From: Bacillota bacterium
GTDB taxonomy: Bacteria > Bacillota > SHA-98 > UBA4971
Length of the DNA: 64,000 nt
Assembly: GCA_024653485.1 (NCBI GenBank)
Contig: JANLFY010000010.1
Coordinates: 54,508 to 118,507 of the forward strand
Direction of reading: 5' to 3'
Each line of letters opens with the position of its first letter. Position 1 is the stretch's first letter. Below, in pieces: positions 5,532-64,000 of this stretch. The position numbers and the translations under genes were made by a program. Below the pieces are notes generated by a model. That model was not told the DNA's origin and made no database searches. It was given only the letters and a program-made list of their open reading frames with translations.

Positions 5532-5539
5532 AGTGCCAG

Positions 5540-16608: not shown

Positions 16609-16686
16609 CGATCGGCAACTGAGTGATCGGCAACTGAGTGGATGACTGCCGGTCCAGTTCATATGCGATAGCCGGTCGGTTCTGAG

Positions 16687-18126
16687 GTGGGCTTCGATAT
16701 GCTCTATGTCGGCGCAGCCAAAACGGAGATAACGCCTGCTCTCGGGATTCCTATGGCAGGCTATCGGGCACGGGCTGGAGTGGCCGAAGGCGTCCACGAC
16801 CCCCTGTTTGTGCGGGTGGTCACGCTTGACGATGGCGGGCGCGGGCTTGTGTTGGTCGCTCTAGACTTGTTTGCGGCGGGCGAAGCCCTTGTCGCCTCCA
16901 TAAGACGGGAGACTATGTCGCGCCTTCGCGAGCTGCCTGGAGGCGGTGCAGACGTGGTCGTTTGCGCCACGCACACGCACGCGGGGCCGGCGGGGATTCT
17001 CTCCAATTCCGAAAACCACGACCGTGAGCTCGTGGGCGCGATCGTGTGCAAGGCCGCGGAGGCTGCGGCTGTCGCCTGGGAGACTCGCCGCCTAGGGCGC
17101 ATCGGATTCGGCTCGTGCAGGGTTCAAGGGGTTGCGTGCAACAGGACGGATTCATCGTCCAGCTTCGACCCACTAGTGAGGGTGATGAAGCTCGAGGACG
17201 TGAGCGGGAGCCCTATTGCGTGCGTCATCAATTACGGGTGCCATCCGACGGTCCTGGGCCCGGAGAACCTTCTCTTCTCTCGCGACTGGCCTGGGTACAC
17301 CCAAGACATGATGGAGGCCTCACGCGACCCCATCGGCATGGTGATGTTCCTCAACGGTGCGTCTGCCGACGTGAGCACTCGCTACACGAGACGCGCCTCG
17401 AGTTTTGACGAAGCGGAACGGCTCGGCCGGATCGTGGCCGACGGCGCACTTGGTGCCGCCCGCCAGGTCGAGTACGTACCGACGCAGCGGATATGCGTGT
17501 TGCGCAAGAGGGTCACGTTGCCTTGTAAACCGCCCGTATCGCCTGAATCCGCTTCTCAGGCGCTCAGAAAAGCCGAGGAGGAACTGGCGGAACTCAAGGC
17601 CAGCGCTGACGCGTCACCTGGCGAGGTGAGGCGTGCGGAATCGGCTGTACTGGCGTGGCAGATAGTCCTGGAGAGAAGCCGGGACCCTGGGGGGAAGAAA
17701 GAAGGGCTCCAGGCATCCGGGCTCGCAGACCGTCCGGACCCCGTGGGCTCCGCGGAGCCTGCAGACTCCGCGGAGAGCGAAGCTGTCAAGGTCGTTGAAA
17801 GCGTGAGAGAAGGTCTTACATGCGAGGTGTGTTTGCTGGATCTAGAGTCTGCCGTTATGGCTTTCGTCCCCGGGGAGGCGACCGCACGAACTGGAAGCCG
17901 CGTAGCGCGGAGGATCGCCGAGATCAGAGGACTTGCGACAGACCGGGTCTGGTTTATCGGCTATTCCAACGGCCATCTCGGGTACATCACGGACGCCGAG
18001 GAGGCACAGGGGGCTACCTCCTTCTCATACGAAGCGCTCATGAGCCGTGTCACGTCTGAGGCAGCAGGCCTGATCGAAGAAGAGATCGCGAATGAGGTGA
18101 TAAAGGGGATGTCGGATAGGTGTTAG
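16687..18126 (+). CDS. neutral/alkaline ceramidase-family amidohydrolase
   Basis: N-terminal pattern MLYVGAAKTEITPALGIPMAGY…GVHDPLFVRVV…VVCATHTHAGPAGI parallels the ceramidase N-domain consensus (GxGKADITP…MMGY…G.H.RL…ATHTHSGP). Confidence 0.55.
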   Translation: MGFDMLYVGAAKTEITPALGIPMAGYRARAGVAEGVHDPLFVRVVTLDDGGRGLVLVALDLFAAGEALVASIRRETMSRLRELPGGGADVVVCATHTHAGPAGILSNSENHDRELVGAIVCKAAEAAAVAWETRRLGRIGFGSCRVQGVACNRTDSSSSFDPLVRVMKLEDVSGSPIACVINYGCHPTVLGPENLLFSRDWPGYTQDMMEASRDPIGMVMFLNGASADVSTRYTRRASSFDEAERLGRIVADGALGAARQVEYVPTQRICVLRKRVTLPCKPPVSPESASQALRKAEEELAELKASADASPGEVRRAESAVLAWQIVLERSRDPGGKKEGLQASGLADRPDPVGSAEPADSAESEAVKVVESVREGLTCEVCLLDLESAVMAFVPGEATARTGSRVARRIAEIRGLATDRVWFIGYSNGHLGYITDAEEAQGATSFSYEALMSRVTSEAAGLIEEEIANEVIKGMSDRC

Positions 18127-50317: not shown

Positions 50318-50725
50318 ATGAAGGGGAGATGGACACCTGTGTCCAGATCCGCGAGACCCAATCATGGCGGCGTAGCCCTCATTCGACAGATAGACGAGTT
50401 CCTGGAACGGGTTAGGGACGCGATACTCATCCAGCACAAGTTTGATTTCATTCCTCGCACAGAGAACCTTGACGGCCTAGCAGAGCTAGGAATCACGATA
50501 GGCGCTGCGAAGCAGGAAATCCTGGCCCTCACGTATCAGGACTACTACAGGGGTCCGTCACCAGATCAGTCGCGAGAGCACGTTCGAGGTGGTGCGATAT
50601 GGGAGTTCATCAGGGATATGGACGGAAGGCCTGTGTACATAAAGCTTAAGCTGGACAACTGCCGCGGTTGCGTGTGCATGTCGTTCCACGAGGCTGACCG
50701 TGCTCCCAGGTTGCCCTACCGGTAG
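50318..50725 (+). CDS. MqsR-like toxin (RNase, RelE-fold superfamily)
   Basis: Colinear pattern with E. coli MqsR: …LTYQDYYRGPSPDQ…IWEFIRDMDGRPVYIKLKL… versus …SDFYKSMTTYSDHTIWQDVYRPRLVTGQVYLKITVI…. Confidence 0.5.
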   Translation: MKGRWTPVSRSARPNHGGVALIRQIDEFLERVRDAILIQHKFDFIPRTENLDGLAELGITIGAAKQEILALTYQDYYRGPSPDQSREHVRGGAIWEFIRDMDGRPVYIKLKLDNCRGCVCMSFHEADRAPRLPYR

Positions 50726-50787
50726 AGCGGTCGGGGAGTTCGCCTCAACGGACCAGTCGAGGAATCATGCACGAAGGAGGACAAACC

Positions 50788-51798
50788 ATGAAAGGCTTCT
50801 GTCCAAAGTGCGACGCAGAAAGGGAACTCATCAAGACCCAGAGGGAGGAGACATATCCAGTAAAGGGCGAGGCCATCACCATCATGTCCAACGTTTTGAC
50901 GTGCGGGACTTGTGGGACCGATGTGTTTGATGAGACTCTGGACAGTGAAAACCTATCCCTGGCCTATTCTCAGTATCGTAAGCAAAAGGGTCTATTGGGA
51001 CCAGAAGAGATCAAAAGGATTAGGGAGAGGTACGGTCTCTCACAGCGCGGTCTGGCTGCCCTCCTGGGATGGAGCCCTGCCACGATAGCAAGATACGAAC
51101 TTGGGTCGATCCCCAGCGTCGCCCATAATGATCAGCTTTGTCGATTCAGCAAGGATGTGGCTTACGCGCGCAGTCTCTTTGAAGCGTCTGCGTCTAGGCT
51201 AGGAAACCTTGAGAGAAAGCGAGTGGAGAAGGCACTTGGTTCCCGCCGGGCAGATAGTGTGCCGGAGAAGATCTCGCGGATCTTGCTAGGCCTGTACTCG
51301 CGGCATGGAGAGTTACTGCGGGGAAGGCGTAGACCCGATCTGAACAGACTCGCCGAAATGGCGGTCTTCTTTGCGGCCAAGTGCCCCGGCATCGCGAAAT
51401 CGAAGTTGCTCAAGATGCTGTGGTATTCGGATTTCGTCTGCTATAGACGGACGCTTTGCTCCATGAGCGGCGCGGTATACTGCCACAACTACTTTGGGCC
51501 CATTCCGCTAGCCCACGACTTGGTCATGGCCTACATGGAGCGGATGCAGTTCATTGCCCTCAAGCCGCAGAGCTACGGCGAGGTCGAAGGAGAGCGGGTC
51601 GAACCTCTCGTGGAGTTCGAGACCGATTTGTTCAGCCCTGAGGAGCTGAAGGTTCTCGAAGACGTCCTACGGAGGTTCAAGGCTTGCAGCGCCACCGCGC
51701 TCGGAAAGATGAGTCACGAGGAGAGGGGTTACACGGAGACGCAGCTCGGTGAGCCGATATCTTACGAGTACGCCATGACCCTGAAAGCTATCGAGTAG
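50788..51798 (+). CDS. antitoxin with MqsA-like zinc ribbon + XRE HTH N-terminal half fused to a Panacea (DUF4065) C-terminal domain
   Basis: CPKCDAERE…CGTCGT zinc ribbon. HTH IKRIRERYGLSQRGLAALLGWSPATIARYELG. C-terminal KLLKMLWYSDFVCYRRTLCSMSGAVYCHNYFGPIP matches the DUF4065 consensus (KLLYxAD…G.P.…Y.A.…GPV). GAAGGAGG Shine-Dalgarno sequence. Confidence 0.6.
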   Translation: MKGFCPKCDAERELIKTQREETYPVKGEAITIMSNVLTCGTCGTDVFDETLDSENLSLAYSQYRKQKGLLGPEEIKRIRERYGLSQRGLAALLGWSPATIARYELGSIPSVAHNDQLCRFSKDVAYARSLFEASASRLGNLERKRVEKALGSRRADSVPEKISRILLGLYSRHGELLRGRRRPDLNRLAEMAVFFAAKCPGIAKSKLLKMLWYSDFVCYRRTLCSMSGAVYCHNYFGPIPLAHDLVMAYMERMQFIALKPQSYGEVEGERVEPLVEFETDLFSPEELKVLEDVLRRFKACSATALGKMSHEERGYTETQLGEPISYEYAMTLKAIE

Positions 51799-52215
51799 GC
51801 TGCGGATGCCAATGCGCTCTCCAAGAGCCGGTATACTCAGTGGACGGGCGTGAGCCAACGGGCTTGGAATTTGAGGTGGCGGCTTCCAGCTCCGTTGCGG
51901 TAAAGCGCACGTGTCGGGGGAAAGGAGTCGGAGACGGCGAGGCGAGCGCCGGGGTATATCGTGATGAGCGACCGTCAATCAGGAAAGGCATGACAAGCTG
52001 GACGTAGACAAGGTGAGCCGGTAATCTCGGCACATCACTGCAACTACAAGGGCGGACATAGACGAAGGAGGAGAGACCCGGAGGAACACAGATCGCTGTC
52101 ATTGGAGGTCTCGCGTCCGATGTGCATGGAGACCGGACGCCGTGATGGTTGTTGGCGAATCGTGCAGAACGACGCAGGATGGGCAGGATAGCTAGTGCCA
52201 TTTGTCTAATACTTA

Positions 52216-55200
52216 TTGGCAAGTCTGGGAGTCTCAGGCCATACGGGCTCCTGCCGGGGGGTGGCTACTTTGGCCGATTCTCCATCTGCCCATGCTGACC
52301 AGCGCACAGGGTTGAGGCCGCCCGACGGCGCGACCGAGAGGGTGTCCGTCGATGCCGCGGACTCGCAGGCTCCGACTGTGCCAACCGTGCCGCCCGCGCC
52401 AACCTCACCGGCAATGTCGACCACCGCACCGGGCGGCATGCCTTCCTCTGCATCGGGGCCGCCGCGCGTTGGTATGCTTGCCACGGTGCGAAATCGCCGA
52501 GGTCTTGTCTCGGCGGTTGAGCCTTTCGATGTATCCACTGAAGGGCGATTCCACTTGATTACCGTGGAGTACCTGGACGGCGGCTCACCCCAGGAAGACC
52601 ACCTCATCTGGGAACGCGAGCCTGGAGCGCGTCTGCTCGAGCCCACAGCGCTGCCGGACGTGGAACGCGACGCCGCTATGGCGCCGGATGAGTTCGACGC
52701 CCTTGTCCGAGCCGCACGGTGGACGGCGCTCGCGCCGTACACCGGCCTAGACAGCCTGGACAGCGTGGATAGCCTCGAGGGCGCCAACCCTAGCCCCGAC
52801 TCTTCCGGCTCCGAAAGGTCCCTGGCATCAAGTCCTCTCACCGCGCCTTTTCACAGCGCGGTGCAGATTGAGGATTTCCAGCTTGTCCCTCTCCTGAAAG
52901 CCCTGCGCATGCCGCGGGCGGCATTGCTCCTGGCGGACGACGTGGGTCTGGGCAAGACGATAGAGGCTGGGCTCATCCTTCGCGAGCTGCTTACCAGGCG
53001 CCGGGTGCGGCGGGTCCTCGTGCTGTGTCCTGCGTCGCTGCGTCTTCAGTGGAAACAAGAGATGCGAGACAAGTTCGCGCTGCCGTTTGACATTGTCGAC
53101 CGCGCCTCCACCCACGCGCTTCAGAAGCGCTTGGGTATGGATGCCAATCCCTGGCGCACCTTTCCGCGCATCATCACCTCATATGACTATCTCAAGCAGC
53201 CCGACGTCCTCGAGCAGTTCCGGTCGGCGTGTCGCGTGCCAGAGGGCTCACCCCATCTTCCTTGGGACCTCCTGATAGTAGATGAGGTCCACAATCTCGC
53301 GCCCGCGCCGCTCGGGGAAGAAAGCGACCTCACGCGAATGCTGAGGATACTCGCTCCCTACTTTGAACACAAACTCTTTCTCACAGCAACGCCGCACAAC
53401 GGACATACGCGAAGCTTTACGGGCCTCCTCGAGTGCCTCGATCCCGCTCGATTCACCGAGAAGGGTGAGCCACTGACAGAGGCAGACAAGCGGCGCGTAT
53501 CGCAAGTCGTTGTCAGACGCTTGAAGAGCGAGATAAACGCAAGGACGAGCCCGCCGAAGTTCTGCGAGCGCAAGCTGGTTGCGCTGCCGCTTTCCTTGAG
53601 CCGTGAAGAGCAAGCTTTGTCGCGAGCCTTCGCAGCTTTTCGACTCAAGGTGAGGTCGCTCGTAGCCTCGGCCCGCGGGACTGAGCAGGTGGCGGGGTCG
53701 TTTGCAGTTGAGGTCCTGGGAAAGCGCCTCCTATCGTGTCCGGTGGCTTTTGCCGACTCGTGGCGTCGCTACTGCGAGGGCCTGGCAGACGCGCAGCCCG
53801 CTGATGTGGACGAGGTCCAGGCAGCGAGGCGATCGATGCGTGAGGAGACCGGGGACGACATGGAGGCGGAAGCGCGCGGGGCGCATGCTGCGCACACTAT
53901 CGGTGCCTGGCTGAAGCCGTTTGCTGAACGCCTTGATCCCGAGATCAAGGCGATCGATCGTGCCCTCCAGGACTTGGGGCTTTACATCACGCACAGCCCA
54001 GCAGGCGATCGGGCGGCCGAAATGACGCCGCGCAGCGATGCCCGCTTCGATGCGCTCTGCAGCTTAATCGAGAGGGCCCTGCGGGGCCATAGGGATGAGC
54101 GTCTGGTGGTCTTCACGGAATACAAGACCACCCTTGAGTATCTTGTACGCAGGCTGAAGGCTGTGTGCCCCGAGGAAGGATCCGTGAGAGTGCTCTTGGG
54201 CGGGATGGACGAGGACGAGCGCGAGCTCATCAAGGCGGCCTTCAACGATCCCGCGGACCCCGTGCGAATCCTCGTAGCGACCGACGCCGCTGCGGAAGGT
54301 TTGAACCTGCAGGAGACGGCGCGGTATATACTGCACTATGACGTGCCCTGGAATCCTGCCCGCCTTGAACAACGGAACGGCCGCCTTGACAGACACGGAC
54401 AGGCCCGGGACGTCGTTGTGTACCACTTCACTGCAGACGACGATGCCGATGTGGCGTTCCTGGCCTATGTGATCCGAAAGGTACACACGATTCGTGAAGA
54501 CTTGGGCTCGACCGGGCAGGTATTCGATTCTGCCATTGAGCGGAGACTCATCGTCGGTGATGACGTAGACCAAGTTCGTGCGGACCTGGACGAGCGACTC
54601 GCCTTTGCGAAAGGGCGGGCGGAATTGCCGAGCGCCGCTGACGATGTCCAGTCGGGCGCTGATGGCCTTGCATACCTGCGTCAGCTCGCGAACGAGGTGG
54701 ATCTTGATGCCGACAGCCTGCGCGAGACCCTCGACGTGGCTCTCGGCCTCAGGGCTGGCCGGCCGCGACTCGACGGTCCCGACGAGCGGGGTCGCTTCCG
54801 CCTGAGGGCTCCGATTCCGGCCGAGTGGAACGCCCTTGTTGATGATTCCTTGCGGTTGGATCGTGGCCGGTTCGGCTTACGTGCATCACCCAAGGGGGCG
54901 CTTCCCGCGATTTTCTTCGACGCGTCGAAACTAGTCCGCGAAGTGGGTGGTCGTCCCGTCTTCAGGCCGGAGAAAGACTCCGTGCTGCTTCATCTCGGTC
55001 ACCCACTCGTAAGCCGCGCTCTCATTACCCTCGCCCAGGCGCGCTTCCCTGCGGCCACGGGAAGGGCCACCCGGTGGACTGTGAAGCGTGGCCCAGTGCC
55101 GCCGGGCGCGGACGCCCTCGTGCTCCTGACCGTGGAGGAACTTGCCGTAAACGAGTTAAGGGAGACGTTTCATCACTGGGTTCGGACGCTGAGGATGCCC

Positions 55201-55761
55201 GTTTTCAGAGGGAGCATTGGTGAGCTCCTTCCCCACGTGCCAGCTAGAGACCTTCGGATAGCGTGCGGCCCGCCCGCGCCGGAGGACGTCGATAGAGCGA
55301 GGCAGGTCTGGGACGAGATCGCGTCAGATGTCCAGGCTTTGGTGAGGGACCTTGCGAGAAGGCTAACAGAAAGACTCGCAAGCACGTTGGATGCCGAGCG
55401 AGTGTCCGCGCTGCGCGTCGAGAACGATCGCTTCATGAGCAGGCAAGGCGAGATCTCTTCTCTCATCGAGGGCACGACGATAGCTCGGCTGGAGAAGGAG
55501 ATCGAAGAACTCAAGCGCGAGCGCAATCAGGGAGTATTGTACGATCAGGACCGCCGGCTCGAGGAAATCGACCGCTCCATCGCAGACAAGGAGGAAGAGA
55601 TCCGGCGACGTCGCGCGCACTATGAGGAGCTTCGCCAGCAGTTACAGCGGGAACGCGAGAGAGTGCTCAAGTACACAATCCCCAGGAGATACACGATGCG
55701 CGGCAGGGCATCGGTTTTCCCAGTTGCTGTTGAGATAAGGCTGCCTGACGACGGGAGGTGA
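52216..55761 (+). CDS. drmD: SNF2-family helicase (DISARM DrmD-like) with Pro/Ser-rich N-terminal extension
   Basis: Motif I LLADDVGLGKTIEAG, DEXH LLIVDEVHNL, motif III FLTATPHNG, motifs V/VI GLNLQETARYILHYDVPWNPARLEQRNGRLDRHGQ. The true start may be an internal ATG (~52414 or 52474). Confidence 0.8.
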   Translation: MASLGVSGHTGSCRGVATLADSPSAHADQRTGLRPPDGATERVSVDAADSQAPTVPTVPPAPTSPAMSTTAPGGMPSSASGPPRVGMLATVRNRRGLVSAVEPFDVSTEGRFHLITVEYLDGGSPQEDHLIWEREPGARLLEPTALPDVERDAAMAPDEFDALVRAARWTALAPYTGLDSLDSVDSLEGANPSPDSSGSERSLASSPLTAPFHSAVQIEDFQLVPLLKALRMPRAALLLADDVGLGKTIEAGLILRELLTRRRVRRVLVLCPASLRLQWKQEMRDKFALPFDIVDRASTHALQKRLGMDANPWRTFPRIITSYDYLKQPDVLEQFRSACRVPEGSPHLPWDLLIVDEVHNLAPAPLGEESDLTRMLRILAPYFEHKLFLTATPHNGHTRSFTGLLECLDPARFTEKGEPLTEADKRRVSQVVVRRLKSEINARTSPPKFCERKLVALPLSLSREEQALSRAFAAFRLKVRSLVASARGTEQVAGSFAVEVLGKRLLSCPVAFADSWRRYCEGLADAQPADVDEVQAARRSMREETGDDMEAEARGAHAAHTIGAWLKPFAERLDPEIKAIDRALQDLGLYITHSPAGDRAAEMTPRSDARFDALCSLIERALRGHRDERLVVFTEYKTTLEYLVRRLKAVCPEEGSVRVLLGGMDEDERELIKAAFNDPADPVRILVATDAAAEGLNLQETARYILHYDVPWNPARLEQRNGRLDRHGQARDVVVYHFTADDDADVAFLAYVIRKVHTIREDLGSTGQVFDSAIERRLIVGDDVDQVRADLDERLAFAKGRAELPSAADDVQSGADGLAYLRQLANEVDLDADSLRETLDVALGLRAGRPRLDGPDERGRFRLRAPIPAEWNALVDDSLRLDRGRFGLRASPKGALPAIFFDASKLVREVGGRPVFRPEKDSVLLHLGHPLVSRALITLAQARFPAATGRATRWTVKRGPVPPGADALVLLTVEELAVNELRETFHHWVRTLRMPVFRGSIGELLPHVPARDLRIACGPPAPEDVDRARQVWDEIASDVQALVRDLARRLTERLASTLDAERVSALRVENDRFMSRQGEISSLIEGTTIARLEKEIEELKRERNQGVLYDQDRRLEEIDRSIADKEEEIRRRRAHYEELRQQLQRERERVLKYTIPRRYTMRGRASVFPVAVEIRLPDDGR

Positions 55762-55766
55762 GGGCC

Positions 55767-58700
55767 ATGGCGGCGAGCGAGGCTGCGGCCTTGAGATACA
55801 CTGCTGACGAAAGCTATGCGTGGTGGGCATCGCTCAGGCACGGAGGGCTGCTCATAGCACCCTCGCACCTAGCCCAGAACTTCCCCCCGGACCTCTCGCC
55901 GTTGCCGCGCCACCTTGAGGACCGCCTCCGCCGCGACATAATGCGCGCGTCGGACGGTCGCACCGAGTCCCTGGCGAGCCTTCTCGACACCGTGCTTGAG
56001 GACGTGCTCGGTTTGGAGAACGACACCTCCGGCGCGGCCACGAAGGGGCGCTGGTTCAAAGGCGGGGACGTCCCGTCTGAATGGTCGAGCCAGGGGATGA
56101 CAGGGGAGATTATCAAGCCTCGACGTCTTTGGAAGGGACCGCACGGGGCGCTTCTCCCTGTATTTGTGGAGTCGGAAAGGGCGGCTCGACTCGGGACAGG
56201 CCGAGGTCGACGCACGACTTCCAGGGTGATCGAGTGGCTCCGGCATAAGGGCGAGAGGATCGCGCTCCTCACAAACGGACGACAATGGCGCCTAGTCTAT
56301 GCCGGGCTCGACCACGATGCCTTCGCCGAATGGGATACCGCCCTATGGTTCGAGGAAGGCAGGACGGGGCTTCAGGTCACCGCCCTCAGGGCGCTCCTGG
56401 GCCGGGATGCCCTCGTGCCGAGTGCGGACGGACAGCCTTGCGCACTTCTCGCTGCCATCGTCGCTTCCCGTAAAGGTCAGGCGGAACTCTCGACTGCGCT
56501 GGGCGAGCGCGTCCGGCAGGCCGTAGAACTCCTCATCCGCGAGCATTCACTTGCTCTTGAAAACGCCGACTTGAGCGTAAAGTCTGCCGACATCTACCAC
56601 GCGGCTACTCGTGTCGTCATGCGTATGGTCGTCGCGCTCTTCGCTGAGGCTAGAGACCTCCTGCCCCGGGACAATCCAATCTATCACGGCTCATATGGGC
56701 TTGGCGGCCTGCGTGAAATGCTCGACCGCTCCGGAGGGGGTGCAGGTTCCGACAGGCTGCGCCATCAGTTTACCGCGTGGCCGAGGATTCTCGCTCTCTT
56801 CAGGCTCGTTTACGAGGGATCTCCTCACGAGGCGTTGCCTGTCCCGCGCTATGCAGGTAATCTGTTCGAGCAGGGCGATCCGTGCTCCGACGATCCTGTC
56901 CGAAGGGCGTTGAGCGTTTTCGAAGACCCAGAGAACTCTCCGAACGACGCAGCGGTCCACGAGATGCTCACCCTTCTCTGTCACAGCCGCGTCAAGATCC
57001 GCCAGGGCAGGAACTCTATGTGGATAGATGCTCCCGTGGATTTCTCGGATCTCTCGTCCGAATACGTAGGAATGCTCTACGAGGGGCTTCTCGACTTCGA
57101 GCTGCGCCGCGCCTCCGACGGCGACCCAATTGTCTTCTTGAACCTCGGCGACCAGCCGGCGCTGCCTCTCTCTCGTCTTGAGGCTCTCGATGACAAGGCC
57201 GTCGCCAGGCTGGTTGAGAAGTCGAAGGAAAGAACCAGGCGCATCGTGAGCGAGGAGAGCGGGGAGGAGAACGAGGACGAGGAGACGGCGGGGGACGAAG
57301 ACACCGATGAGGCCGAACCCGATGACGATGGCGCCGAACCCGAGGACGACGGCTCGGAGGAGAGCGGGGAACCTGCCGATGGCGAGGAAACTCCCGGGGC
57401 CTCGCCGAGTGGTGGTGGCGCTGGCGACGATGCCCGGCGTGCCGCTACTGAGCGGGCGTGGCGATGGGCGTTGCGGGCGGTGAAAGTAGGCAGGCTCGTC
57501 CACAGGCCGCGGTCCTCGAGCCCGGCCGCCCTTCGGGAGTACGAGGCGCTTTGCGGGCAGGCCGCGAAACGTCTTGTGGCGCGTGTGGTACTTCCGGGCG
57601 AATGGTACCTCGTCCGATGGGGAGGTACCCGTAAGGGTGCGGGAACTTTCTATACTCGCCCGCAGCTTGCAGTTCCAACAATCCACCGGACCCTGCGGCC
57701 TCTTGCGTACGAGACCCCGATCGGCCCAGACGGACCTGCCGACGATAGCGGGAACGCTTCAGCCTCCCGATGGATTCCGAGAAGACCTGAAGAGATCCTT
57801 GCCCTCAAGGTGTGCGACCCGGCGTGCGGGTCAGGGTCGTTCCTCACAGCCGCCCTCAGATTCCTCACAGATGCGCTGGTGGAAAGCCTTCACTATCACG
57901 GACGCATCCGCAACCAAGGTGAGAGGGCCGTTGTGACGCTGGCAGAAGGGCGGCCTGAGTCCGGACGCCTTTCGGATGAACTCCTGCCGTGCCGCCCTGA
58001 TTCGGACGGCTTCGAGGCGCAGCTGCGGGCGCGTCTCAAGCGATATGTAGTGGAGCGCTGCATCTACGGAGTAGACATAGATCCGCTCGCCGTCGAGCTT
58101 GCGCGGGTAGCCTTGTGGATCGAGACAATGGACCCTGCACTCCCATTCAGCTTCCTCGACCATAAGGTAAAGGTGGGCAACTCCCTTGTGGGTTGCTGGT
58201 TCGACCGATTCCGGGATTACCCCGTGCTCGCCTGGGAGCGAGAAGGCGGCGACAGCAACCATACGCGTGGTGTCCGTTTTGAGAAGGGGACCTGGACGAA
58301 AGCCATCAAGAAGTTCCGCAACGAACGCATAAGGGGGGAACTCAAGACATGGCTTGAGGGCCGCGGCTACCAGCTGATGCTTCCGCTTCCCGAGCTCAAC
58401 GTGGCTCCTGAGGCGGTGCACGATGAGGCGACGGCTCTTCTGGAAAGAATGCACGATTTTGCGGTGCACGAGTCGGAGGAACGCGCGGTCTTCTACCGTG
58501 ACAGGATCCTGGGCAACCCCGCGTTCCAGCGCCTCAAGGAGGCCTTCGATACTTGGTGCGCCATCTGGTTCTGGCCGGCGGAACGTCTGGAGGACGCCCC
58601 GACGCCACTCAACTTCACCGATCCGCCCAGGGTGACACGCGACCTTGCAAGGCAACTTGCCAGCGAGCACCGATTCTTTCACTGGGAACTCGAGTTCCCC

Positions 58701-60836
58701 GATGTCTTCGCGCGTCCAGGCAGCGGGTTCGATGCCGTGGTCGGGAATCCGCCGTGGGAGATCCAGAAGCCGAACTCCAAGGAGTTCTTTTCGAACATCG
58801 ACCCGCTTTACCGAACCTACGGCAAACAGGAGGCCCTCGATAAGCAGTCAGAGTACTTCCAGCGCAGCGCTGACGACGAGCGAAACTGGCTGGCGTATTG
58901 TGCCAGGCTCAAAGCTCTCTCGAACTGGGTAAAGAACGCGGGCCTCCCTTTCGGTGATGGGGAGGAAGGGAGCGCGACTTTCGGTCTGGGCAGAAGCGAC
59001 AGCCGCTTGCTCGACGAATGGCGGGCGCGACGCGCTGCGCGAAGGGGCTACGCTGACCCAGAGCACGCGTTCAGATACCAAGGTTCAGCGGACATCAACA
59101 CGTACAAGATGTTCCTGGAACAGGCACATGCTCTCCTTCGCGAGGGAGGTCGGATGGGCATTGTGGTGCCTTCCGGGGTGTACACGGACAAGGGTGCCTC
59201 TGACCTCAGGAAGCTCCTTCTTGCCCGTTGCCGATGGGAGTGGCTGTTCGGGTTTGAGAACAGGGACAAGGTCTTTGACATCGATAGCCGTTTTAAGTTC
59301 TGCCCGATCGTTGTGCAGAAAGGCGGAGAGACAGAGTCCATCCAGACCGCCTTCATGCGCAGGAACCTCGCCGACTGGGAGGAGGGAGAGCGGTACGCCA
59401 TTCCTTACGCGCGGGTACAGGTGGAACGCTTCAGCCCCAACAGCCGGGCCATACTCGAGATACGCAACAGACGCGACCTGGAGATCCTCGAAAAGATCTA
59501 CGCAAACTCTGTTCTTCTCGGAGACGTGGGCCCCAGGGGGTGGCAGATCAAGTATGCCCGCGAGTTCGATATGACGACCGATTCGGAGTTGTTTCCCCCA
59601 CGCCCCTGGTGGGAGGCCCAGGGTTATCGGCCCGATGAGTACGGCCGCTGGCTCAAAGGCCGCTGGCACGAAGGCCGGCCTGCCGGACCTCGATGGGAGA
59701 TGGAGCCTGGCGTCATCCTGTCCGTGGACGGCACCGCGTGGATCCACGAAGACGAGATCGACGATATCGCACTGCCGTTGTATGAGGGCCGGATGATTGG
59801 GCAGTTTGACTTCAGCCAGAAGGGCTGGGTGCGCGGGAAGGGCCGCGGCGCGGTGTGGCGGGAGATGAGCTGGGCGGCAAAAGTGTTTGAGCCCCAATAC
59901 TTGATGGCTCTTGAGACATGCAGGATGAGTGAGTGCCCAGTCCTAGGTTGCAAGATGCCCGTAATGAACATAAGTAGCGCAACAAACTCACGTACTGTCG
60001 TTGGAGCGTTCGCAAAGGATTTCCCGTGCAATCATTCGTTGAATCCGATACGCTCGGGCTCTCTCCAAAGACTACTCGCTGGAGTTGCTATCTTCAACTC
60101 GTGGGTCTTCGACTTTGCAGTGAGAGCGCGAATGGGTGGGGTAAACCTGAGCTACTTCGTCCTCGATGAAGTTCCCATGGTTCAACCCGGTGCTGCTGAC
60201 TGCCTTCCACTAATCGCTGCGTCAACATCGCTTTCGCTGGCGCATAGATGGTTCTCACCAGAGTGGCTCAAGGTTGCGTCCTACGTTAAGCCCTGTGTAA
60301 AAACTGATGGACAGAGCATACAGGCGGCGTGGGAACAACGGTGGGCCCTGACAGCTCAGGAACGCCTGCGCCTCCGGTGCATCATCGATGCCATAGCCGC
60401 GGAGCTCTACGGGCTTGATTGGGACGACTTGGCCTGGATACTGCGTGAGTGCGATTATCCTGCTGAGAGGCTCCAAGACAAGACCTTCACACGAATGCTT
60501 GACCCGAAGGGCTTTTGGCGCGTGGACAAGGACAAGGATCCGGAGTTAAGACACACGGTGCTGACCTTGGCGGCGTTTAGGGACTTGAAGGAGATTATCG
60601 CCTCTGAAGGCGACAGGGATAAAGGCATCGAGGTATTCTGCAGCATGAACGGCGGCGAGGGCTGGATGCTCCCCGAGACGGTGAGGCTCGCTGATCTCGG
60701 CCTTGGACATGATGAACGGGCGAAGCGGGCGCAGCCCGTTCGCGAGCGTCTGGGGGGCGGTTCCTGCCTTGGCAGTTGGAGGCCTCTCCAGAAAAGTCCT
60801 GGAAGGAGTGCCGGCTGCACGCCCGCAACCTCCTAG
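55767..60836 (+). CDS. drmMI: giant (1692 aa) N6-adenine DNA methyltransferase, Eco57I/PglX/DrmMI-like (gamma-class motif order)
   Basis: Motif I KVCDPACGSGSFL; motif IV VVGNPPWEI (NPPW); long flanking N- and C-terminal regions with an acidic low-complexity insert (EESGEENEDEETAGDEDTDEAEPDDDGAEPEDDGSEE). GGGAGGTGA ribosome-binding site; the start overlaps the upstream stop codon. Confidence 0.8.
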   Translation: MAASEAAALRYTADESYAWWASLRHGGLLIAPSHLAQNFPPDLSPLPRHLEDRLRRDIMRASDGRTESLASLLDTVLEDVLGLENDTSGAATKGRWFKGGDVPSEWSSQGMTGEIIKPRRLWKGPHGALLPVFVESERAARLGTGRGRRTTSRVIEWLRHKGERIALLTNGRQWRLVYAGLDHDAFAEWDTALWFEEGRTGLQVTALRALLGRDALVPSADGQPCALLAAIVASRKGQAELSTALGERVRQAVELLIREHSLALENADLSVKSADIYHAATRVVMRMVVALFAEARDLLPRDNPIYHGSYGLGGLREMLDRSGGGAGSDRLRHQFTAWPRILALFRLVYEGSPHEALPVPRYAGNLFEQGDPCSDDPVRRALSVFEDPENSPNDAAVHEMLTLLCHSRVKIRQGRNSMWIDAPVDFSDLSSEYVGMLYEGLLDFELRRASDGDPIVFLNLGDQPALPLSRLEALDDKAVARLVEKSKERTRRIVSEESGEENEDEETAGDEDTDEAEPDDDGAEPEDDGSEESGEPADGEETPGASPSGGGAGDDARRAATERAWRWALRAVKVGRLVHRPRSSSPAALREYEALCGQAAKRLVARVVLPGEWYLVRWGGTRKGAGTFYTRPQLAVPTIHRTLRPLAYETPIGPDGPADDSGNASASRWIPRRPEEILALKVCDPACGSGSFLTAALRFLTDALVESLHYHGRIRNQGERAVVTLAEGRPESGRLSDELLPCRPDSDGFEAQLRARLKRYVVERCIYGVDIDPLAVELARVALWIETMDPALPFSFLDHKVKVGNSLVGCWFDRFRDYPVLAWEREGGDSNHTRGVRFEKGTWTKAIKKFRNERIRGELKTWLEGRGYQLMLPLPELNVAPEAVHDEATALLERMHDFAVHESEERAVFYRDRILGNPAFQRLKEAFDTWCAIWFWPAERLEDAPTPLNFTDPPRVTRDLARQLASEHRFFHWELEFPDVFARPGSGFDAVVGNPPWEIQKPNSKEFFSNIDPLYRTYGKQEALDKQSEYFQRSADDERNWLAYCARLKALSNWVKNAGLPFGDGEEGSATFGLGRSDSRLLDEWRARRAARRGYADPEHAFRYQGSADINTYKMFLEQAHALLREGGRMGIVVPSGVYTDKGASDLRKLLLARCRWEWLFGFENRDKVFDIDSRFKFCPIVVQKGGETESIQTAFMRRNLADWEEGERYAIPYARVQVERFSPNSRAILEIRNRRDLEILEKIYANSVLLGDVGPRGWQIKYAREFDMTTDSELFPPRPWWEAQGYRPDEYGRWLKGRWHEGRPAGPRWEMEPGVILSVDGTAWIHEDEIDDIALPLYEGRMIGQFDFSQKGWVRGKGRGAVWREMSWAAKVFEPQYLMALETCRMSECPVLGCKMPVMNISSATNSRTVVGAFAKDFPCNHSLNPIRSGSLQRLLAGVAIFNSWVFDFAVRARMGGVNLSYFVLDEVPMVQPGAADCLPLIAASTSLSLAHRWFSPEWLKVASYVKPCVKTDGQSIQAAWEQRWALTAQERLRLRCIIDAIAAELYGLDWDDLAWILRECDYPAERLQDKTFTRMLDPKGFWRVDKDKDPELRHTVLTLAAFRDLKEIIASEGDRDKGIEVFCSMNGGEGWMLPETVRLADLGLGHDERAKRAQPVRERLGGGSCLGSWRPLQKSPGRSAGCTPATS

Positions 60837-61146
60837 GAGAGGAAGGCTACAAGAAGCTGATGGAAGAGCTTGATGCCGCGCAAGGCCATAAGGCCGGCGG
60901 GCTTTCAACAACTCCCACGGAGGAAGCCCGCTCCGAAGCCTCCGAAGTCTCTGGGGAGGCAGAGTGGCCAGCACTTGCTGCTGAGTCGCATCCTCCCTAC
61001 GGAGCAGGCACAGTCGTGGGGCGCACCCAGCTTACGTTGTTTCCCTCGGGTCAGAAGAACCTGTTTGGTGAGAACTCGGCCAGCATTCGGCCGAATAAAA
61101 GACGAACGCGCCGCTAGAAAACCGAGACAGGCTGGTGAGTTATGAG

Positions 61147-64000
61147 GTGGCTATCAACCCTGTCAGCTTCACCGAGAAGGTCGTGGGGGATTTCCTTCGC
61201 TACCAGTTGACCACCTATGCGTTTGCCGATCCGCTTCTCCACCGCCAGCTACGGGAGCTGCTCTCACTAGAGAGAACGAGACAGACGCCTCTTCTCAAAG
61301 GCCCCTACGTCAGCCTATCGCGCTCCTTCCGCATGGGAGCAAGCGTGTCAAGCCTAATCTCCGAAGGCCTTCTTCATCCGTTCATGGCGAACCTCATCCC
61401 GTACCAGCGCCTCTACGGCCATCAGGAGAAGGCTATCAGATCCATTCGTGCCGGGAAGACGACGCTCATCTCCACTGGCACCGGGTCGGGCAAGACGGAG
61501 TGTTTCCTCTATCCCATCATCAGCCGGTGTCTTGAACTTCGAGACGAAGGGGCCGCGCCCGGGATCGTCGCCGTCATTGTATATCCGATGAACGCTCTTG
61601 CTGAGGACCAGCTGGGGCGCTTGCGCGGGATACTGGCAGGCACGGGGATCCCCTTCGGGATGTATGTGGGCAAGACCCCAGAACGCGCAGCCGACGTTTC
61701 GGGGGAACAGCTACCTCCTGGTTCTTCCCGGGAAGCTTACCTCGCAAAGCTTGCTCAGGTGAGGGAGGAGCGCCGAAACGTCCCCGTGCGCCCGCCCGAG
61801 GAGCGCGCTTCCCGCGAGGAAATGCGCACGCCTGGAATGCAGCCGCGCATCCTGCTCACCAACGTGAAGCAACTAGAGCTGCTTCTGACCCGTCACGCTG
61901 ATGTGGAGCTGTTCGATGGCGCGCGTTTTGAGTTTCTGGTGTTCGATGAAGCACACACGTACGGGGGTGCGGCGGGCGCGGAGACAGCGTGCCTCGTCCG
62001 GCGGCTCCGTGCGTTTTGCGGCAAGAGTGCCGGTGAAGTGGCCCACGTTGCCACATCAGCAACCTTGGCGGACCCTGTCCACGGTTGCGAGGGTGCAAAG
62101 GCGTTCGCGGCGCGGTTCTTCGGCGTTCCCAGCGAGGACGTATCCCTTGTGGGGGAAGAGTATGAGCCGGATGAATGGGCGGCCGTGAGGCATCTGCCCT
62201 CCCCGCTGCCCGGGGATCCGTCCGTCCAGCTCAAGAACATCATTGATGCGATAGATGCTGGCGACGATGCCGGTCGCATGGTGCGCACACTGGTCCAAGC
62301 CATGACGGGAGCAAGGATCGACGCGGCGCACTGGCAGGAAGATCTCTACACCCTCCTTGCCCAGAACGAACTATGCTACCAGATCAGCGAGGCTCTGTCT
62401 CGCCCGAGAGCGCTCACGGATCTTGTAACAGAACTCCAGGATCGCGTGGGACGGCCTGTGCCTGAAGAGGAGGTGCTTGCCTGGCTTGCCCTCGGCGCCG
62501 CGTCCAGTAAGGAGGGTCGGCCGCTGCTCAGGCCGGTGATCCATGCCTTTGTTCGCGGCGTGGGCGGTGCGGTGGTCACGTTTCCGGAGGGGGAGCCCGG
62601 CCCACGGCTGTGGCTTTCCGCCGAAGACGAGCTCGCCACTCAAGGGGAGGACAGCCTCTTCCGCCTGCCGGTCATGACCTGCAACACCTGCGGCCAGCAC
62701 TACTTCGTCCACCACGTGAAGGACCTCGTCATAGCCCCGAACGGGCTGGGGGGTGGAGACGCGGTGGATAGCCGCAGAGTCTGGCCTGCGCTTGGACCCG
62801 AGCAGGAAGGCACGCGGGTGGTGCTCCTGGACCGTCTCGCGCTCTCAGACGAAGAGGACGGTGAGGTGCCACGCACACACAAGGTCTTCATGTGTCGCCG
62901 CTGCGGGGCGCTTCATCCCGAAGCCCTTGACCGCTGCGACGCGTGCGGGCGCGAGGGGGAGCTCGTGCCCCTGTTTGCCGTAGACCAGGACGAAAGGCGT
63001 AGGGGCTATCTGGTGTCCTGCCTTGCCTGCAGGACACTGGGCCGTGAGAGACCGGGCGGTTACAGAGAACCGGCTCGCCCGGTGCGCGCGGTGAGCGTGT
63101 CCGACGTGCACGTCCTGGCCCAGAACATGATCCATCACGCTGATCGACGCCGCCTGCTGGTCTTCGCAGACAATCGCCAGGAGGCAGCTTTCCAGGCCGG
63201 CTGGATGAAGGATCACGCGCGTCGTTTCCGGCTTCGCAGCCTGATGGCAGAGAAGATCTCGGAGGGTCCCATATCAGTCGGCGACCTAACAGCCCATCTG
63301 GACGAGAAGCTCAATGACGACGATGAGCTATCAAGGGGCCTCATTCCAGAGGTATGGCAGGTGGCCAGGAAGGAAGCCGAGGGAGTCCGACACGCCCAAG
63401 AACGCAGGTACTTCCTGCGTATCGCGGTGTTGAGAGAGGCCTCCACTGGTATTAGGCAGAGAGTCGGCCTCGAGCCCTGGGGCAGGATCAAGATAGACTA
63501 CCATGGCCTTACACCCGAACTCGCTTTCATCGGGGAATGGGCGAGCAGGCTCGGTATAGAGCCTGCGGAGCTCGTGGAAGGCATCAGCGCTCTTCTCGAC
63601 AACTATCGCCGTCAGATGTATCTCCTGGACCGTGACGGTCAGATCTTCTCACGTTTCTGGAAGGATGGAGACCGTGAGATCCAACAGGGGTACTTGCCCC
63701 TTCTGCAGGGAGTCCCGAGGGGCATGAAGCTTTTCAGGGAGGCGGACGACGACCGTGGGCGCGTAGCGCAGTGGCTCAGCCCGGTCGGCGATACGATCGT
63801 CAAACAAGCGGCGCGGGCCTGGGGCGTGCCCAATGACGACGTAGAGGACTTCGTGAAGGGATTATGGGACCTGCTGACCAAGGAACTTCAGATCTTGGCA
63901 CCGGTGACGCTAGCCGATGCCAGAGGGAATGCGTTGAGACACTGCGCCGGTGTGCGCCAGATCGATGCCGACCTCCTCAGGATCTCGCCCCACGATGGAG
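61147..64000 (+). CDS. drmA: DEAD/DEAH-box superfamily-2 helicase, DrmA-like (5' portion; ORF continues beyond the window end; absent from the supplied ORF track)
   Basis: Manual translation from GTG 61147 gives an uninterrupted ~950-codon frame. Q-motif/motif I LIPYQRLYGHQEKAIRSIRAGKTTLISTGTGSGKTE; motif II LVFDEAHTYGG (DEAH-like); later Cys clusters MTCNTCGQHY and CRRCG…CDACGRE (zinc ribbons). Confidence 0.7.
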   Translation, partial: MAINPVSFTEKVVGDFLRYQLTTYAFADPLLHRQLRELLSLERTRQTPLLKGPYVSLSRSFRMGASVSSLISEGLLHPFMANLIPYQRLYGHQEKAIRSIRAGKTTLISTGTGSGKTECFLYPIISRCLELRDEGAAPGIVAVIVYPMNALAEDQLGRLRGILAGTGIPFGMYVGKTPERAADVSGEQLPPGSSREAYLAKLAQVREERRNVPVRPPEERASREEMRTPGMQPRILLTNVKQLELLLTRHADVELFDGARFEFLVFDEAHTYGGAAGAETACLVRRLRAFCGKSAGEVAHVATSATLADPVHGCEGAKAFAARFFGVPSEDVSLVGEEYEPDEWAAVRHLPSPLPGDPSVQLKNIIDAIDAGDDAGRMVRTLVQAMTGARIDAAHWQEDLYTLLAQNELCYQISEALSRPRALTDLVTELQDRVGRPVPEEEVLAWLALGAASSKEGRPLLRPVIHAFVRGVGGAVVTFPEGEPGPRLWLSAEDELATQGEDSLFRLPVMTCNTCGQHYFVHHVKDLVIAPNGLGGGDAVDSRRVWPALGPEQEGTRVVLLDRLALSDEEDGEVPRTHKVFMCRRCGALHPEALDRCDACGREGELVPLFAVDQDERRRGYLVSCLACRTLGRERPGGYREPARPVRAVSVSDVHVLAQNMIHHADRRRLLVFADNRQEAAFQAGWMKDHARRFRLRSLMAEKISEGPISVGDLTAHLDEKLNDDDELSRGLIPEVWQVARKEAEGVRHAQERRYFLRIAVLREASTGIRQRVGLEPWGRIKIDYHGLTPELAFIGEWASRLGIEPAELVEGISALLDNYRRQMYLLDRDGQIFSRFWKDGDREIQQGYLPLLQGVPRGMKLFREADDDRGRVAQWLSPVGDTIVKQAARAWGVPNDDVEDFVKGLWDLLTKELQILAPVTLADARGNALRHCAGVRQIDADLLRISPHDG

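Follow-up and report, generated by a model that had tools for sequence, protein, structure and literature searches.

The three-gene locus at the end of the window, by which we mean the whole stretch of 64,000 nt that was analysed, is very probably an ARMADA type I anti-phage system with the gene order armA-armB-armC. All three genes are on the + strand and encode, in order, an SNF2 helicase, an NPPW N6-adenine methyltransferase and a second helicase whose frame is still open at the window end. ARMADA is a recently described relative of DISARM and Druantia (Bell et al. 2025, bioRxiv 10.1101/2025.09.15.676423; PMC12458937), defined by the trio of an SNF2 helicase, a PglX-like methyltransferase and a YprA helicase with a fused DUF1998 (Bell et al. 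2025, PMC12458937). We document here the family assignment of the locus, its gene content and domain architecture, the conserved synteny of its relatives and the hypervariability of one cassette within ArmB. The locus is a real and ordinary further member of an already catalogued family.

An operon nearly identical to that of the window (93-97%), differing from it almost only in the ArmB cassette, is found on contig JAAYXB010000001.1, referred to below as L001. The helicase of this contig (NLG78226.1) is entered as 'ARMADA Type I helicase' in Table S1 of the ARMADA publication, which likewise names the contigs DUMQ01000065.1 (L002) and JAAZKF010000027.1 (L003) (Bell et al. 2025, PMC12458937). 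Placement of the window locus in the type I clade was taken from these three listings. The order armA-armB-armC is the 'reversed' one, reported for archaea and cyanobacteria, type I usually being armC-first (Bell et al. 2025, PMC12458937). Among the loci collected here the reversed order occurs in MAGs labelled Bacillota, Acidobacteriota, Planctomycetota, Binatia, Spirochaetia and Actinomycetota, among others. Coordinates of the features are given in Table 1.

Table 1. Features of the armA-armB-armC locus and of the region upstream (positions in the window; amino acid positions refer to the encoded protein)
Feature	Position	Strand	Size, protein position or basis
MqsR-like toxin candidate, weak match	50318-50725		domain search
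MqsA/HTH/Panacea antitoxin	50767-51798		domain search
Block directly 5' of the armA ORF	52156..52215	+	60 bp, zero substitutions relative to L001
armA, SNF2 (BrxHII/RapA/DrmD-like) helicase	52216..55761	+	1181 aa ORF; PADLOC, NCBIfam, Pfam
armA Walker A GLGKT	52945-52959	+	sequence motif
armA DEVH box	53281-53292	+	sequence motif
armB, PglX/DrmMI-like N6-adenine DNA methyltransferase	55758..61117	+	1786 aa with one base restored
ArmB N-terminal restriction-endonuclease-like fold	56040..56342	+	about aa 95-195; fold matches
ArmB acidic linker, N-terminal module to methyltransferase domain	57252..57437	+	aa 499-560
ArmB SAM-binding motif I DPACGSG	57816..57836	+	aa 687-693
ArmB catalytic motif IV NPPW	58746..58757	+	aa 997-1000
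ArmB hypervariable cassette	59910..60377	+	aa 1385-1540; sharply bounded
G6 run with one base missing (A in L001), armB frameshift	60752..60757	+	alignment with L001
armC 5' half, YprA-family DEAH helicase, ARMADA/Druantia lineage	61147..64000	+	951 of about 1800 codons
armC Walker A GSGKT	61483-61497	+	sequence motif
armC DEAH box	61945-61956	+	sequence motif
ArmC six-helix insert right after RecA1	62218..62502	+	aa 358-452; AF2 model, pLDDT 85.4
ArmC beta-rich zinc-binding module	62533..63081	+	aa 463-645; AF2 model, four CxxC pairs
ArmC CxxC pairs	62680-62691, 62893-62904, 62935-62946, 63019-63030	+	sequence motif

The two helicase genes and the upstream region

A preliminary description of this DNA had noted three co-directional genes for an SNF2 helicase, an NPPW-type adenine methyltransferase and a DEAD/DEAH helicase with zinc-ribbon cysteines, and had read them as a class 1 DISARM-like operon. 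The gene arrangement and the three protein types were borne out by open reading frames, domains and motifs. ArmA contains the Pfam domains SNF2-rel_dom and Helicase_C in addition to its Walker A and DEVH motifs. Its PADLOC matches are DrmD (9.1e-207) and BrxHII (1.4e-76), and it passes the NCBIfam DISARM_DrmD equivalog NF038317 with 692.6 bits, the cutoff being 610. The closest solved structure by sequence is RapA (5e-31, top match of the PDB sequence search). Where armA starts is uncertain between 52216 and 52474. Candidates are TTG 52216, GTG 52261, which is the start called in L001, and ATG 52474 as the latest, and in the alignment of window and L001 a strong third-position substitution bias is seen only from 52474 on.

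Directly 5' of the armA ORF lies the 60-bp block that is free of substitutions, which may be a promoter or leader. A sigma-70 consensus was not found in the block, and the scan for promoters and terminators upstream of armA found nothing. The spacer at 51.8-52.15 kb is about 18% diverged from L001 and has no codon-position bias. A minus-strand ORF at 51788-52222 is not counted as a gene, since in none of the frames do its substitutions relative to L001 favour a codon position. Further upstream are metabolic genes and a TA-like pair, in agreement with the earlier statement that the locus follows a TA module. The region at 49.6-50.3 kb, correctly noted before as gene-poor, contains no recognisable domain and no recognisable pseudogene. 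The suggestion that the locus belongs to an acquired island stays unproven, since the window contains no tRNA, a search for att-like repeats shared by the left edge and the DNA past the operon in L001 was negative, and no pseudogene could be recognised at 49.6-50.3 kb.

The 5' half of armC, for which GTG 61135 is an alternative start, encodes a protein 97% identical to L001 ArmC over the 955 residues they share. L001 ArmC is a single polypeptide of 1801 aa comprising DEAD, Helicase_C, DUF1998/MZB (PF09369, 1.9e-11) and a Vsr-like tail, and from it the DUF1998 and nuclease parts of the window protein, which fall beyond the window end, are inferred. Two traits of the lineage, a helical insert after RecA1 followed by a zinc-binding beta-module with at least two CxxC pairs, are both present in the window ArmC. 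The insert, which has been described in the literature for this lineage of helicases, is located where a BrxA-like domain is found, the likeness being one of position. The cysteines of the zinc module are invariant or nearly so in 66 homologs. In a Foldseek search with the ArmC fragment MrfA (6znp) was the best match (1.9e-11), followed mostly by generic SF2 cores; the large helicases 9tu7 (2108 aa) and 9wae (1970 aa), which together with YprA/MrfA are the closest solved relatives of ArmC, were outside the top 50 fold matches.

The C-terminal tail, off the window, has a pattern (PD...YLDG.S..H.G...D..R) that is invariant in 30 homologs. Alignment of the tail with the Vsr region of E. coli ArmC by hhalign gave an E of 8e-4 with a probability of 24%, and further weak matches were obtained with Pfam MTES_1575 (E 0.029, in 4 of 30 members) and with PDB 3r3p (E 0.3). 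The tail is thus a putative Vsr-type PD-(D/E)xK nuclease, the match being weak at the level of sequence (E 0.03-0.3).

It is in the third gene that the locus departs from DISARM. Were it class 1 DISARM, the genes would be drmD, drmMI and drmA, followed by drmB and drmC outside the window, and the score of the first gene above the NCBIfam DrmD cutoff, the match of the second to DrmMI models and the similar gene order all agree with this. The model searches that the preliminary description had proposed thus upheld its first assignment, gave for the second a DrmMI match that is outscored by a Type IIG model, and failed the third. Gene 3 has neither a DrmA nor a DrmB match in NCBIfam, and its PADLOC score was 366 bits with DruE (DruE3 1.1e-109) as opposed to 46 bits with DrmA, the latter confined to the generic Helicase_C region; the window part by itself matches DruE3 at 1.4e-55 with no DrmA match. 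There was no DrmA structure among the sequence or fold matches of ArmC, and neither the EVE-like domain nor the trigger loop, both published as N-terminal features specific to DrmA, is evident in it. The DISARM branch consistently keeps DUF1998 as a separate gene, yet in gene 3 this domain is fused. Finally, the separate DUF1998 (DrmB) and PLD (DrmC) genes by which the preliminary description expected DISARM membership to be decided are found after armC neither in L001 nor in any of the 80 related loci. We consider class 1 DISARM to be a highly improbable reading; a defence operon related to DISARM, with a DrmD-like and a DrmMI-like gene, is what remains of it.

With DruE models making up all the best PADLOC matches of gene 3, a Druantia system, or a new type of it, with a DruE helicase at its core would be another reading. 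DruE of types I-III resembles ArmC in size, in the fused DUF1998, in the helical insert after RecA1 and in a zinc beta-barrel module, and it provides the best HMM and PDB sequence matches of ArmC; the structures 9tu7 and 9wae are of DruE-like size, both being deposited simply as helicases. In the literature the Druantia helicases form the sister clade to those of ARMADA. However, DruA-D, DruM/F/G and DruH are all missing, and the partner genes are DrmD-like and DrmMI-like instead. The C-terminal nuclease of Druantia is PLD in type III, types I and II having a Vsr that is inactivated, whereas the Vsr-like tail of ArmC retains invariant residues of catalytic type and has no PLD pair. Because the published phylogeny also puts the ortholog in ARMADA type I, we regard Druantia as most improbable as well.

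The methyltransferase gene and its variable cassette

As sequenced, armB is an ORF of 1692 aa at 55758-60836 (+), its frame being broken after aa 1667. At the G-run the window reads CTGGGGG-GCGG and L001 reads CTGGGGGAGCGG, so that the window has a 1-bp deletion. With the base restored the stop is at 61115-61117, 17-29 nt 5' of armC. Both the 1692 aa length and the gap of about 300 bp that had been reported before the third gene result from this deletion relative to L001, and the gap is a frameshift artefact. The size of the methyltransferase, formerly called unusual, is normal for the family, since full-length homolog ORFs have about 1650-1815 aa. As to the start, GTG 55758 is the mechanical reading and produces the stop/start overlap of armA and armB previously described. 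ATG 55767 has GGGAGG upstream of it at a spacing of 8 nt and is in this sequence context the more likely start; with it the overlap disappears. An exact-protein lookup with gene 2 gave no match, likely because of the shifted frame and another choice of start.

The frameshift deprives ArmB of a C-terminal stretch of about 120 residues, which begins with some 35 residues of a conserved block. The deletion may have impaired the window copy of armB; alternatively, it may stem from a sequencing error. If it is real, the locus would be a decaying ARMADA operon that no longer defends the cell, and the position of the break within the block 1545-1700, which is 57-72% identical to most homologs, agrees with such decay. 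Over about 12 kb the reading frames are nonetheless intact apart from this one lesion, which is found at a G-run, a typical site of sequencing or assembly error. The greater part of what is lost, residues 1700-1786, shows little conservation, and the catalytic motifs and the TRD are upstream of the break. Decay is thus possible, but we consider it unlikely.

ArmB has Pfam matches to Eco57I, MmeI_Mtase and N6_Mtase. In PADLOC the scores were 1506 bits for REase_MTase_IIG (PDLC03622) and 447 bits for DrmMI, and no NCBIfam methyltransferase model reached its cutoff. The NPPW motif corresponds to residue 971 of the E. coli type II reference (plasmid NZ_CP080067.1, obtained through a tblastn match), and N971 of E. 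coli ArmB is necessary for defence. As phmmer gave no match of ArmB to PDB sequences, a fold search was needed. By fold the N-terminal part resembles MmeI, BpuSI, DrdV and PglX; the canonical PD...(D/E)xK residues are unconserved in it, and judging from these residues the nuclease-like fold is probably catalytically dead. The N-terminal module is joined to the methyltransferase domain by an acidic linker that is probably disordered. The preliminary description was correct that such an insert is present, but it is not peculiar to this locus. The equivalent segment holds 21-35 D/E residues in 22 of 23 ArmB homologs, with no conservation of sequence, and acidity is therefore a compositional trait of the ArmB clade.

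The cassette towards the C-terminus is 37% identical to that of L001, in contrast to 93-96% in the flanking regions of ArmB, and the alignment of window and L001 DNA is interrupted at 59910-60340. Across the family it is the least conserved block of ArmB. From this pattern of variation the cassette is a probable target-recognition (specificity) domain.

A TRD-like variable cassette, an N-terminal fold like that of BpuSI, DrdV and MmeI, and REase_MTase_IIG as the best PADLOC match would all suit a solitary Type IIG restriction-modification enzyme that happens to be located beside unrelated helicases. Against this, the association of ArmB with these SNF2 and YprA helicases is kept across phyla, and in type II ARMADA defence needs the methyltransferase together with the helicases. 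The canonical residues are unconserved in the nuclease-like fold, and this fold is also matched by the BREX PglX, which has no nuclease. A solitary enzyme is accordingly very unlikely, and ArmB is treated below as part of ARMADA. In layout ArmB agrees with BREX PglX and with the Type IIG/IIL enzymes MmeI, BpuSI and DrdV (REase-like fold, helical connector, gamma-class N6A methyltransferase, variable TRD), from which it differs in lacking conserved nuclease catalytic residues and in forming an operon with two helicases. No PglZ-, BrxC- or BrxL-type domain was found in any neighbour scanned, upstream in the window or downstream in L001.

Relatives and comparison with known systems

The order armA-armB-armC, with 0-7 kb between armB and armC, is kept across many phyla among the 80 related loci. 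ArmB is upstream of ArmC in 48 of them, and many of the remaining loci are truncated contigs. In relatives, defence or TA cargo was observed between armB and armC. No conserved gene is found downstream of armC among the 80 loci. In L001 the downstream ORFs scanned encode a 628-aa protein, two products with no matches and a nitroreductase. The 628-aa gene, next after armC, has no match in Pfam, PADLOC, NCBIfam or PHROGs and no BLAST match to E. coli ArmD, so that the hallmark of type II is absent. Being unconserved in the other loci, this gene was left out of the system.

The features shared with ARMADA type I are the BrxHII/RapA-like SNF2 helicase, the PglX-like NPPW methyltransferase and the YprA helicase with fused DUF1998 and a putative Vsr-like tail, and ArmD is likewise lacking. 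The window locus differs from the usual type I in its reversed order, in the frameshift of armB and in a cassette unlike that of L001. Members of type II are known from E. coli NCTC 12900, ATCC 8739 and EDL933 (z5899-z5902). With these it has in common the armA-armB-armC order, the NPPW methyltransferase, helicases with Walker A/B motifs and an ArmC with the PD...LDG core of a Vsr-type nuclease. In type II, however, armC is directly followed by armD (RelE-GajB/UvrD helicase), ArmC has 2113 aa as opposed to 1801 aa in L001, with an additional EEP and a second Vsr that are absent here, and ArmB has no acidic linker.

The resemblance to class 1 DISARM extends to a DrmD-like SNF2 helicase, a DrmMI-like methyltransferase and a helicase of the YprA superfamily with a DUF1998 module. 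The DISARM helicase belongs to the DrmA branch and ArmC to the Druantia/ARMADA branch; DISARM has a separate DrmB and a PLD DrmC, whereas here the DUF1998 and the putative Vsr-type domain are both fused. Standard resources mislabel the locus, as DrmD in NCBIfam and as a Type IIG restriction enzyme and DruE in PADLOC v2. Going by these labels, pipelines or careful readers would report 'DISARM-like', 'Druantia' or 'Type IIG R-M'.

Proposed mode of action

ARMADA type I is phylogenetically widespread, and experimental proof of defence so far comes from type II, for which alone anti-phage activity and a non-abortive outcome have been published; no experimental validation of type I was found in the published literature. 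In type II none of the genes is dispensable for defence, and the Walker motifs and NPPW are needed as well. The window proteins are 24-29% identical to the validated type II proteins of E. coli, and the anti-phage activity predicted for the window locus is for that reason an extrapolation from them. From the genetics of type II ARMADA, together with DISARM and BREX, we infer type I activity, the discrimination of self from non-self and, as the likeliest mechanism, the following steps.

ArmB would be a sequence-specific N6-adenine methyltransferase of Type IIG/PglX build with a swappable specificity cassette. The cassette would determine the motif at which ArmB marks host DNA, and ArmB may double as the recognition module. 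ArmA is an SNF2 translocase. ArmC is a YprA-family DEAH helicase to which an OB-CON-DUF1998 canopy is fused and which ends in a putative Vsr-type PD-(D/E)xK nuclease. ArmA and ArmC would load on invading DNA that is unmarked or structurally aberrant and translocate along it using ATP, and the nuclease of ArmC would then degrade this DNA directly, the cell not being killed. In the ARMADA literature consulted, no demonstration of methylation or of a self-marking role was found for any ARMADA system.

A bolder reading, which we hold to be improbable though conceivable, is that type I ARMADA is a programmable methylation-guided helicase-nuclease, in which the freely exchanged cassette (aa 1385-1540) would set the motif, the acidic linker would gate the recognition module as an intramolecular mimic of DNA and the G-run deletion could be a true ON/OFF lesion and no sequencing error. 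The ideas of a programmable cassette, a DNA-mimic linker and ON/OFF switching are not described in the ARMADA literature consulted. Should this reading be true, the window and L001 systems would methylate different motifs. Either way, the window and L001 operons as a pair offer a natural experiment on self-discrimination by methylated motif.

Assignment of the operon to ARMADA type I

The three genes form a real defence operon belonging to ARMADA type I, and are hereafter armA, armB and armC. Like class 1 DISARM, ARMADA operons encode a PglX-like methyltransferase and a BrxHII/RapA-like helicase, but their YprA helicase is nearest that of Druantia; the OB-CON-DUF1998 module that is a separate gene in DISARM is fused in ARMADA, and ArmC bears a C-terminal Vsr-type nuclease (Bell et al. 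2025, PMC12458937). In type II a fourth gene encodes ArmD, a RelE-GajB/UvrD helicase, and the order is strictly A-B-C-D; type I is without ArmD and is mostly ordered C-A-B, the A-B-C order being that of ‘many archaea and cyanobacteria’ (Bell et al. 2025, PMC12458937). The assignment is settled by Table S1 of that study, in which the YprA helicases on the contigs of three related loci, the near-identical ortholog locus L001 (NLG78226.1), L002 and L003, are each named ‘ARMADA Type I helicase’ (Bell et al. 2025, PMC12458937). Because type I was catalogued in 2025, the locus is ordinary as a discovery.

The preliminary description had called the locus class 1 DISARM-like. A defence operon it is, but the family was misjudged, gene 3 being DruE-like with a fused DUF1998. 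Of the DISARM models suggested as a check, DrmD matched gene 1 and DrmMI gene 2 (447 bits), while DrmA reached only 46 bits on gene 3, on the generic Helicase_C region (PADLOC). Gene 3 is the decisive gene for the family. It matched DruE-type models only (PADLOC; DruE3 scored 1.4e-55 with the part of gene 3 in the window, 1.1e-109 with the whole L001 protein), and NCBIfam gave no DrmA or DrmB match in it. The full-length L001 protein carries DEAD, Helicase_C and MZB (formerly DUF1998) domains within one polypeptide, unlike the split-off gene of DISARM, and the predicted downstream DUF1998 (drmB) and PLD (drmC) genes were sought in L001, where neither a PLD gene nor a separate DUF1998 gene is present. 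Druantia differs in its companions, which are here an SNF2 helicase and a PglX/DrmMI-like methyltransferase. The type II reference was an E. coli plasmid operon (NZ_CP080067.1; its ArmA is WP_001041505.1, an accession that also stands in Bell Table S2). Against it identity was 24-29% for ArmA and ArmC (29% and 24-25%, respectively), ArmB similarity was confined to the surroundings of the methyltransferase motifs, and the fourth gene of L001 had no similarity to ArmD.

The NCBIfam DrmD ‘equivalog’ fires on ArmA above its curated cutoff (692.6 bits vs 610), and PADLOC v2 names ArmB ‘REase_MTase_IIG’ and ArmC ‘DruE’ (52216-61117). Because these labels misfire, pipelines will report ARMADA loci as DISARM, Type IIG R-M or Druantia fragments. 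Residual interest lies in this mislabelling of type I by HMM libraries, in experimental defence data that, per the ARMADA literature, cover type II only, and in family-level features new with respect to the ARMADA papers, in which we found no mention of the ArmB cassette, the acidic linker, the cargo slot or the S24 peptidase of long-form ArmC described below.

Gene boundaries and upstream region

Features of the window and of related loci (window coordinates unless a locus is named)
Feature	Position	Strand	Remark
TA-like pair	50318-51798		
Spacer before armA	51799-52215		
ORF, rejected	51788-52222	-	144 aa
Invariant block	52156-52215		60 bp
armA (gene 1)	52216-55761	+	ORF, 1181 aa
armB (gene 2), as sequenced	55758-60836	+	ORF, 1692 aa
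ArmB acidic linker	57252-57437		aa 499-560
ArmB cassette	59910-60377		aa 1385-1540
G-run with missing base	60752-60757		
armC (gene 3), 5' part	61147-window end	+	open frame, 951 codons
L001 gene 1			1157 aa
L001 gene 2			1782 aa
L001 gene 3			1801 aa
L001 gene after gene 3, unrelated to operon	15488-17374		628 aa
L003, variant layout	23-8853		
L004, variant layout	71-4737		
L022 GmrSD gene	15403-17184		
L072 ArmC extension	~15400-15955		
L081 operon relative	17342-44255		

The layout of two long co-directional ORFs and a third open frame reaching the window end was as first described. However, the gap of about 300 bp before gene 3 is a frameshift artefact: in alignment with L001 a single base is missing from a G-run (window CTGGGGG-GCGG, L001 CTGGGGGAGCGG). 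With the base restored, gene 2 encodes 1786 aa and stops at 61117, 17-29 nt short of gene 3. In the sequence as it stands, ArmB goes out of frame after aa 1667, within a block (aa 1545-1700) holding 57-72% identity to most homologs and ahead of a poorly conserved extreme C-terminal tail. The deletion is either a sequencing or assembly error or a real lesion, which in the latter case might impair the window copy. The stop/start overlap of genes 1 and 2 holds for the mechanical GTG start at 55758, yet armB probably starts at ATG 55767, with GGGAGG 8 nt before it (region 55753-55769). In gene 1, clear third-position substitution bias between the window and L001 begins only at 52474. For 52216-52473, a 9-bp indel that keeps the frame and a depletion at the second codon position nonetheless suggest an N-terminus that is coding but evolves fast, and the start of the gene is uncertain.

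Upstream, a glycerol-3-phosphate-dehydrogenase-like metabolic cluster extends to ~49.6 kb and is followed, as reported earlier, by ~700 bp without recognisable genes and then a TA-like pair. The latter consists of a weak MqsR-like ORF (23.7 bits, under the Pfam cutoff) and a gene for a 343-aa protein with MqsA_antitoxin, HTH_3 and SocA/Panacea domains. Between the window and L001 the noncoding spacer ahead of armA has diverged by ~18%, and the substitutions favour no codon position, for which reason the minus-strand ORF across it was rejected as spurious. Its last 60 bp have no substitutions, which suggests a regulatory element, and no sigma-70 consensus was found. As no tRNA, integrase or att-like repeat was found at the locus, the proposed acquired island is only plausible.

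Protein architecture and proposed mechanism

ArmA is an SNF2 helicase, as the preliminary description had it (Pfam SNF2-rel_dom and Helicase_C, Walker A GLGKT, DEVH box), scoring 9e-207 with DrmD and 1e-76 with BrxHII in PADLOC; its closest solved relative is RapA. ArmB is likewise an NPPW-type adenine methyltransferase (Eco57I, MmeI_Mtase and N6_Mtase matches; motif I DPACGSG at aa 687, NPPW at aa 997) with ‘Type IIG REase-MTase’ as best PADLOC model (1506 bits). In its cassette the window and L001 share 37% identity, against 93-96% in the flanks, and a second pair, L033 and L062, repeats the pattern (28% vs 85%). Across the family the segment is hypervariable, at 20-40% in most pairs whatever their overall relatedness. 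With its sharp boundaries it behaves as swappable target-recognition domains do, and is probably one. The acidic linker keeps its composition but not its sequence in 22 of 23 homologs of the clade, and is not present in E. coli type II ArmB; speculatively, it might mimic DNA or act in autoinhibition.

The DEAD/DEAH domain (Pfam), GSGKT and DEAH motifs and four CxxC pairs agree with the first reading of ArmC as a helicase with zinc-ribbon cysteines. By sequence, its closest solved relatives are B. subtilis YprA/MrfA and a pair of large helicases, 9tu7 (2108 aa) and 9wae (1970 aa). When the part in the window was modelled with AF2 (pLDDT 85.4), MrfA was the top fold match and no DrmA was among the best 50; in the model RecA1 is followed by a six-helix insert (aa 358-452) and a beta-rich module (aa 463-645), whose four CxxC pairs vary little or not at all across 66 homologs. 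As modelled, insert and module are the lineage-specific inserts published for the ARMADA helicase lineage. The C-terminal 145 residues of the homologs hold an invariant PD...YLDG.S..H.G...D..R and align to the ‘active Vsr’ region of E. coli ArmC (hhalign E 8e-4), with marginal Pfam/PDB profile matches (MTES_1575 0.029, 3r3p 0.3), consistent with assignment as a putative Vsr-type nuclease. A long form of ArmC (~1980 aa) with a ~180-aa C-terminal extension occurs in 47 of 66 full-length relatives (~70%), for instance L072. All 13 extensions scanned are LexA/UmuD-type Peptidase_S24 domains (GxSMEP...K; Pfam best E 1.4e-9), of which Bell et al. (PMC12458937) make no mention, and the lineage of the window and L001 has the short form.

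Published for type II only are broad, non-abortive protection, the need for all four genes, and the need for the ArmA and ArmC Walker A/B motifs and ArmB NPPW. In the type I locus, ArmB would mark or recognise a DNA motif, ArmA and ArmC would translocate along unmarked or aberrant foreign DNA, and the ArmC nuclease would then degrade it. The hypervariable cassette gives this scheme new support; we found no demonstration of methylation for any ARMADA system in the ARMADA literature.

Related loci and embedded cargo

An exact-product lookup of the gene 2 protein gave no match. With gene 3 as query and one genome per species scanned, 248 relatives were detected and 80 loci from many phyla retrieved. 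L001 belongs to a Bacillota MAG (JAAYXB010000001.1) and runs collinear to the window over 51110-64000 at ~90-96% DNA identity, its proteins being 91%, 89% and 97% identical for genes 1 to 3. By tblastn and ORF clustering across the 80 loci, the common core order is SNF2, methyltransferase, 0-7 kb, YprA helicase, found in MAGs labelled Bacillota, Acidobacteriota, Planctomycetota, Binatia, Spirochaetia, Actinomycetota, Chlorobiota and others, with no conserved gene 3' of the helicase.

The 628-aa ORF of L001 begins 94 bp after armC; even L002, with a 76% identical ArmC, shows no conservation of it. It had no match in Pfam, PADLOC, NCBIfam or PHROGs and no counterpart in other ARMADA loci; by eye it holds a degenerate HD-like motif (HSRWDF...LLSNIGH) and a C-terminal PD-ExK-like motif (EFDG...LETK). 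A counterpart probably sits just past the window end. In L003 and L004 a shorter ArmA (899 aa) follows a 2044-aa protein without a Pfam match, which stands where a recognisable ArmB would be; the L003 helicase is still ‘ARMADA type I’ in the authors' list (Bell et al. 2025, PMC12458937).

The armB-armC junction, empty in the window, is a hotspot for defence and TA genes in relatives (L004, L006, L009, L013, L015, L025, L026, L029, L030, L042 and L044), and in L016 the insertion lies between armA and armB instead. Cargo comprises Schlafen AlbA_2 with HATPase_c_4, AAA_15/AAA_21 with DUF3696, OLD-family ATPase-TOPRIM, AbiEii, Fic, HTH with Peptidase_M78 and a 1250-aa AAA_30/UvrD_C_2 helicase, and in L022 a GmrSD gene lies immediately 3' of armC. 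A type I relative on a 70.8 kb plasmid of Synechocystis sp. B12 (L081, CP101713.1), 54% identical to the window ArmC fragment, has an IS701 insertion and a PIN-domain gene immediately 5' of armC, and, given its annotation as many short CDS, is either fragmented or frameshifted.
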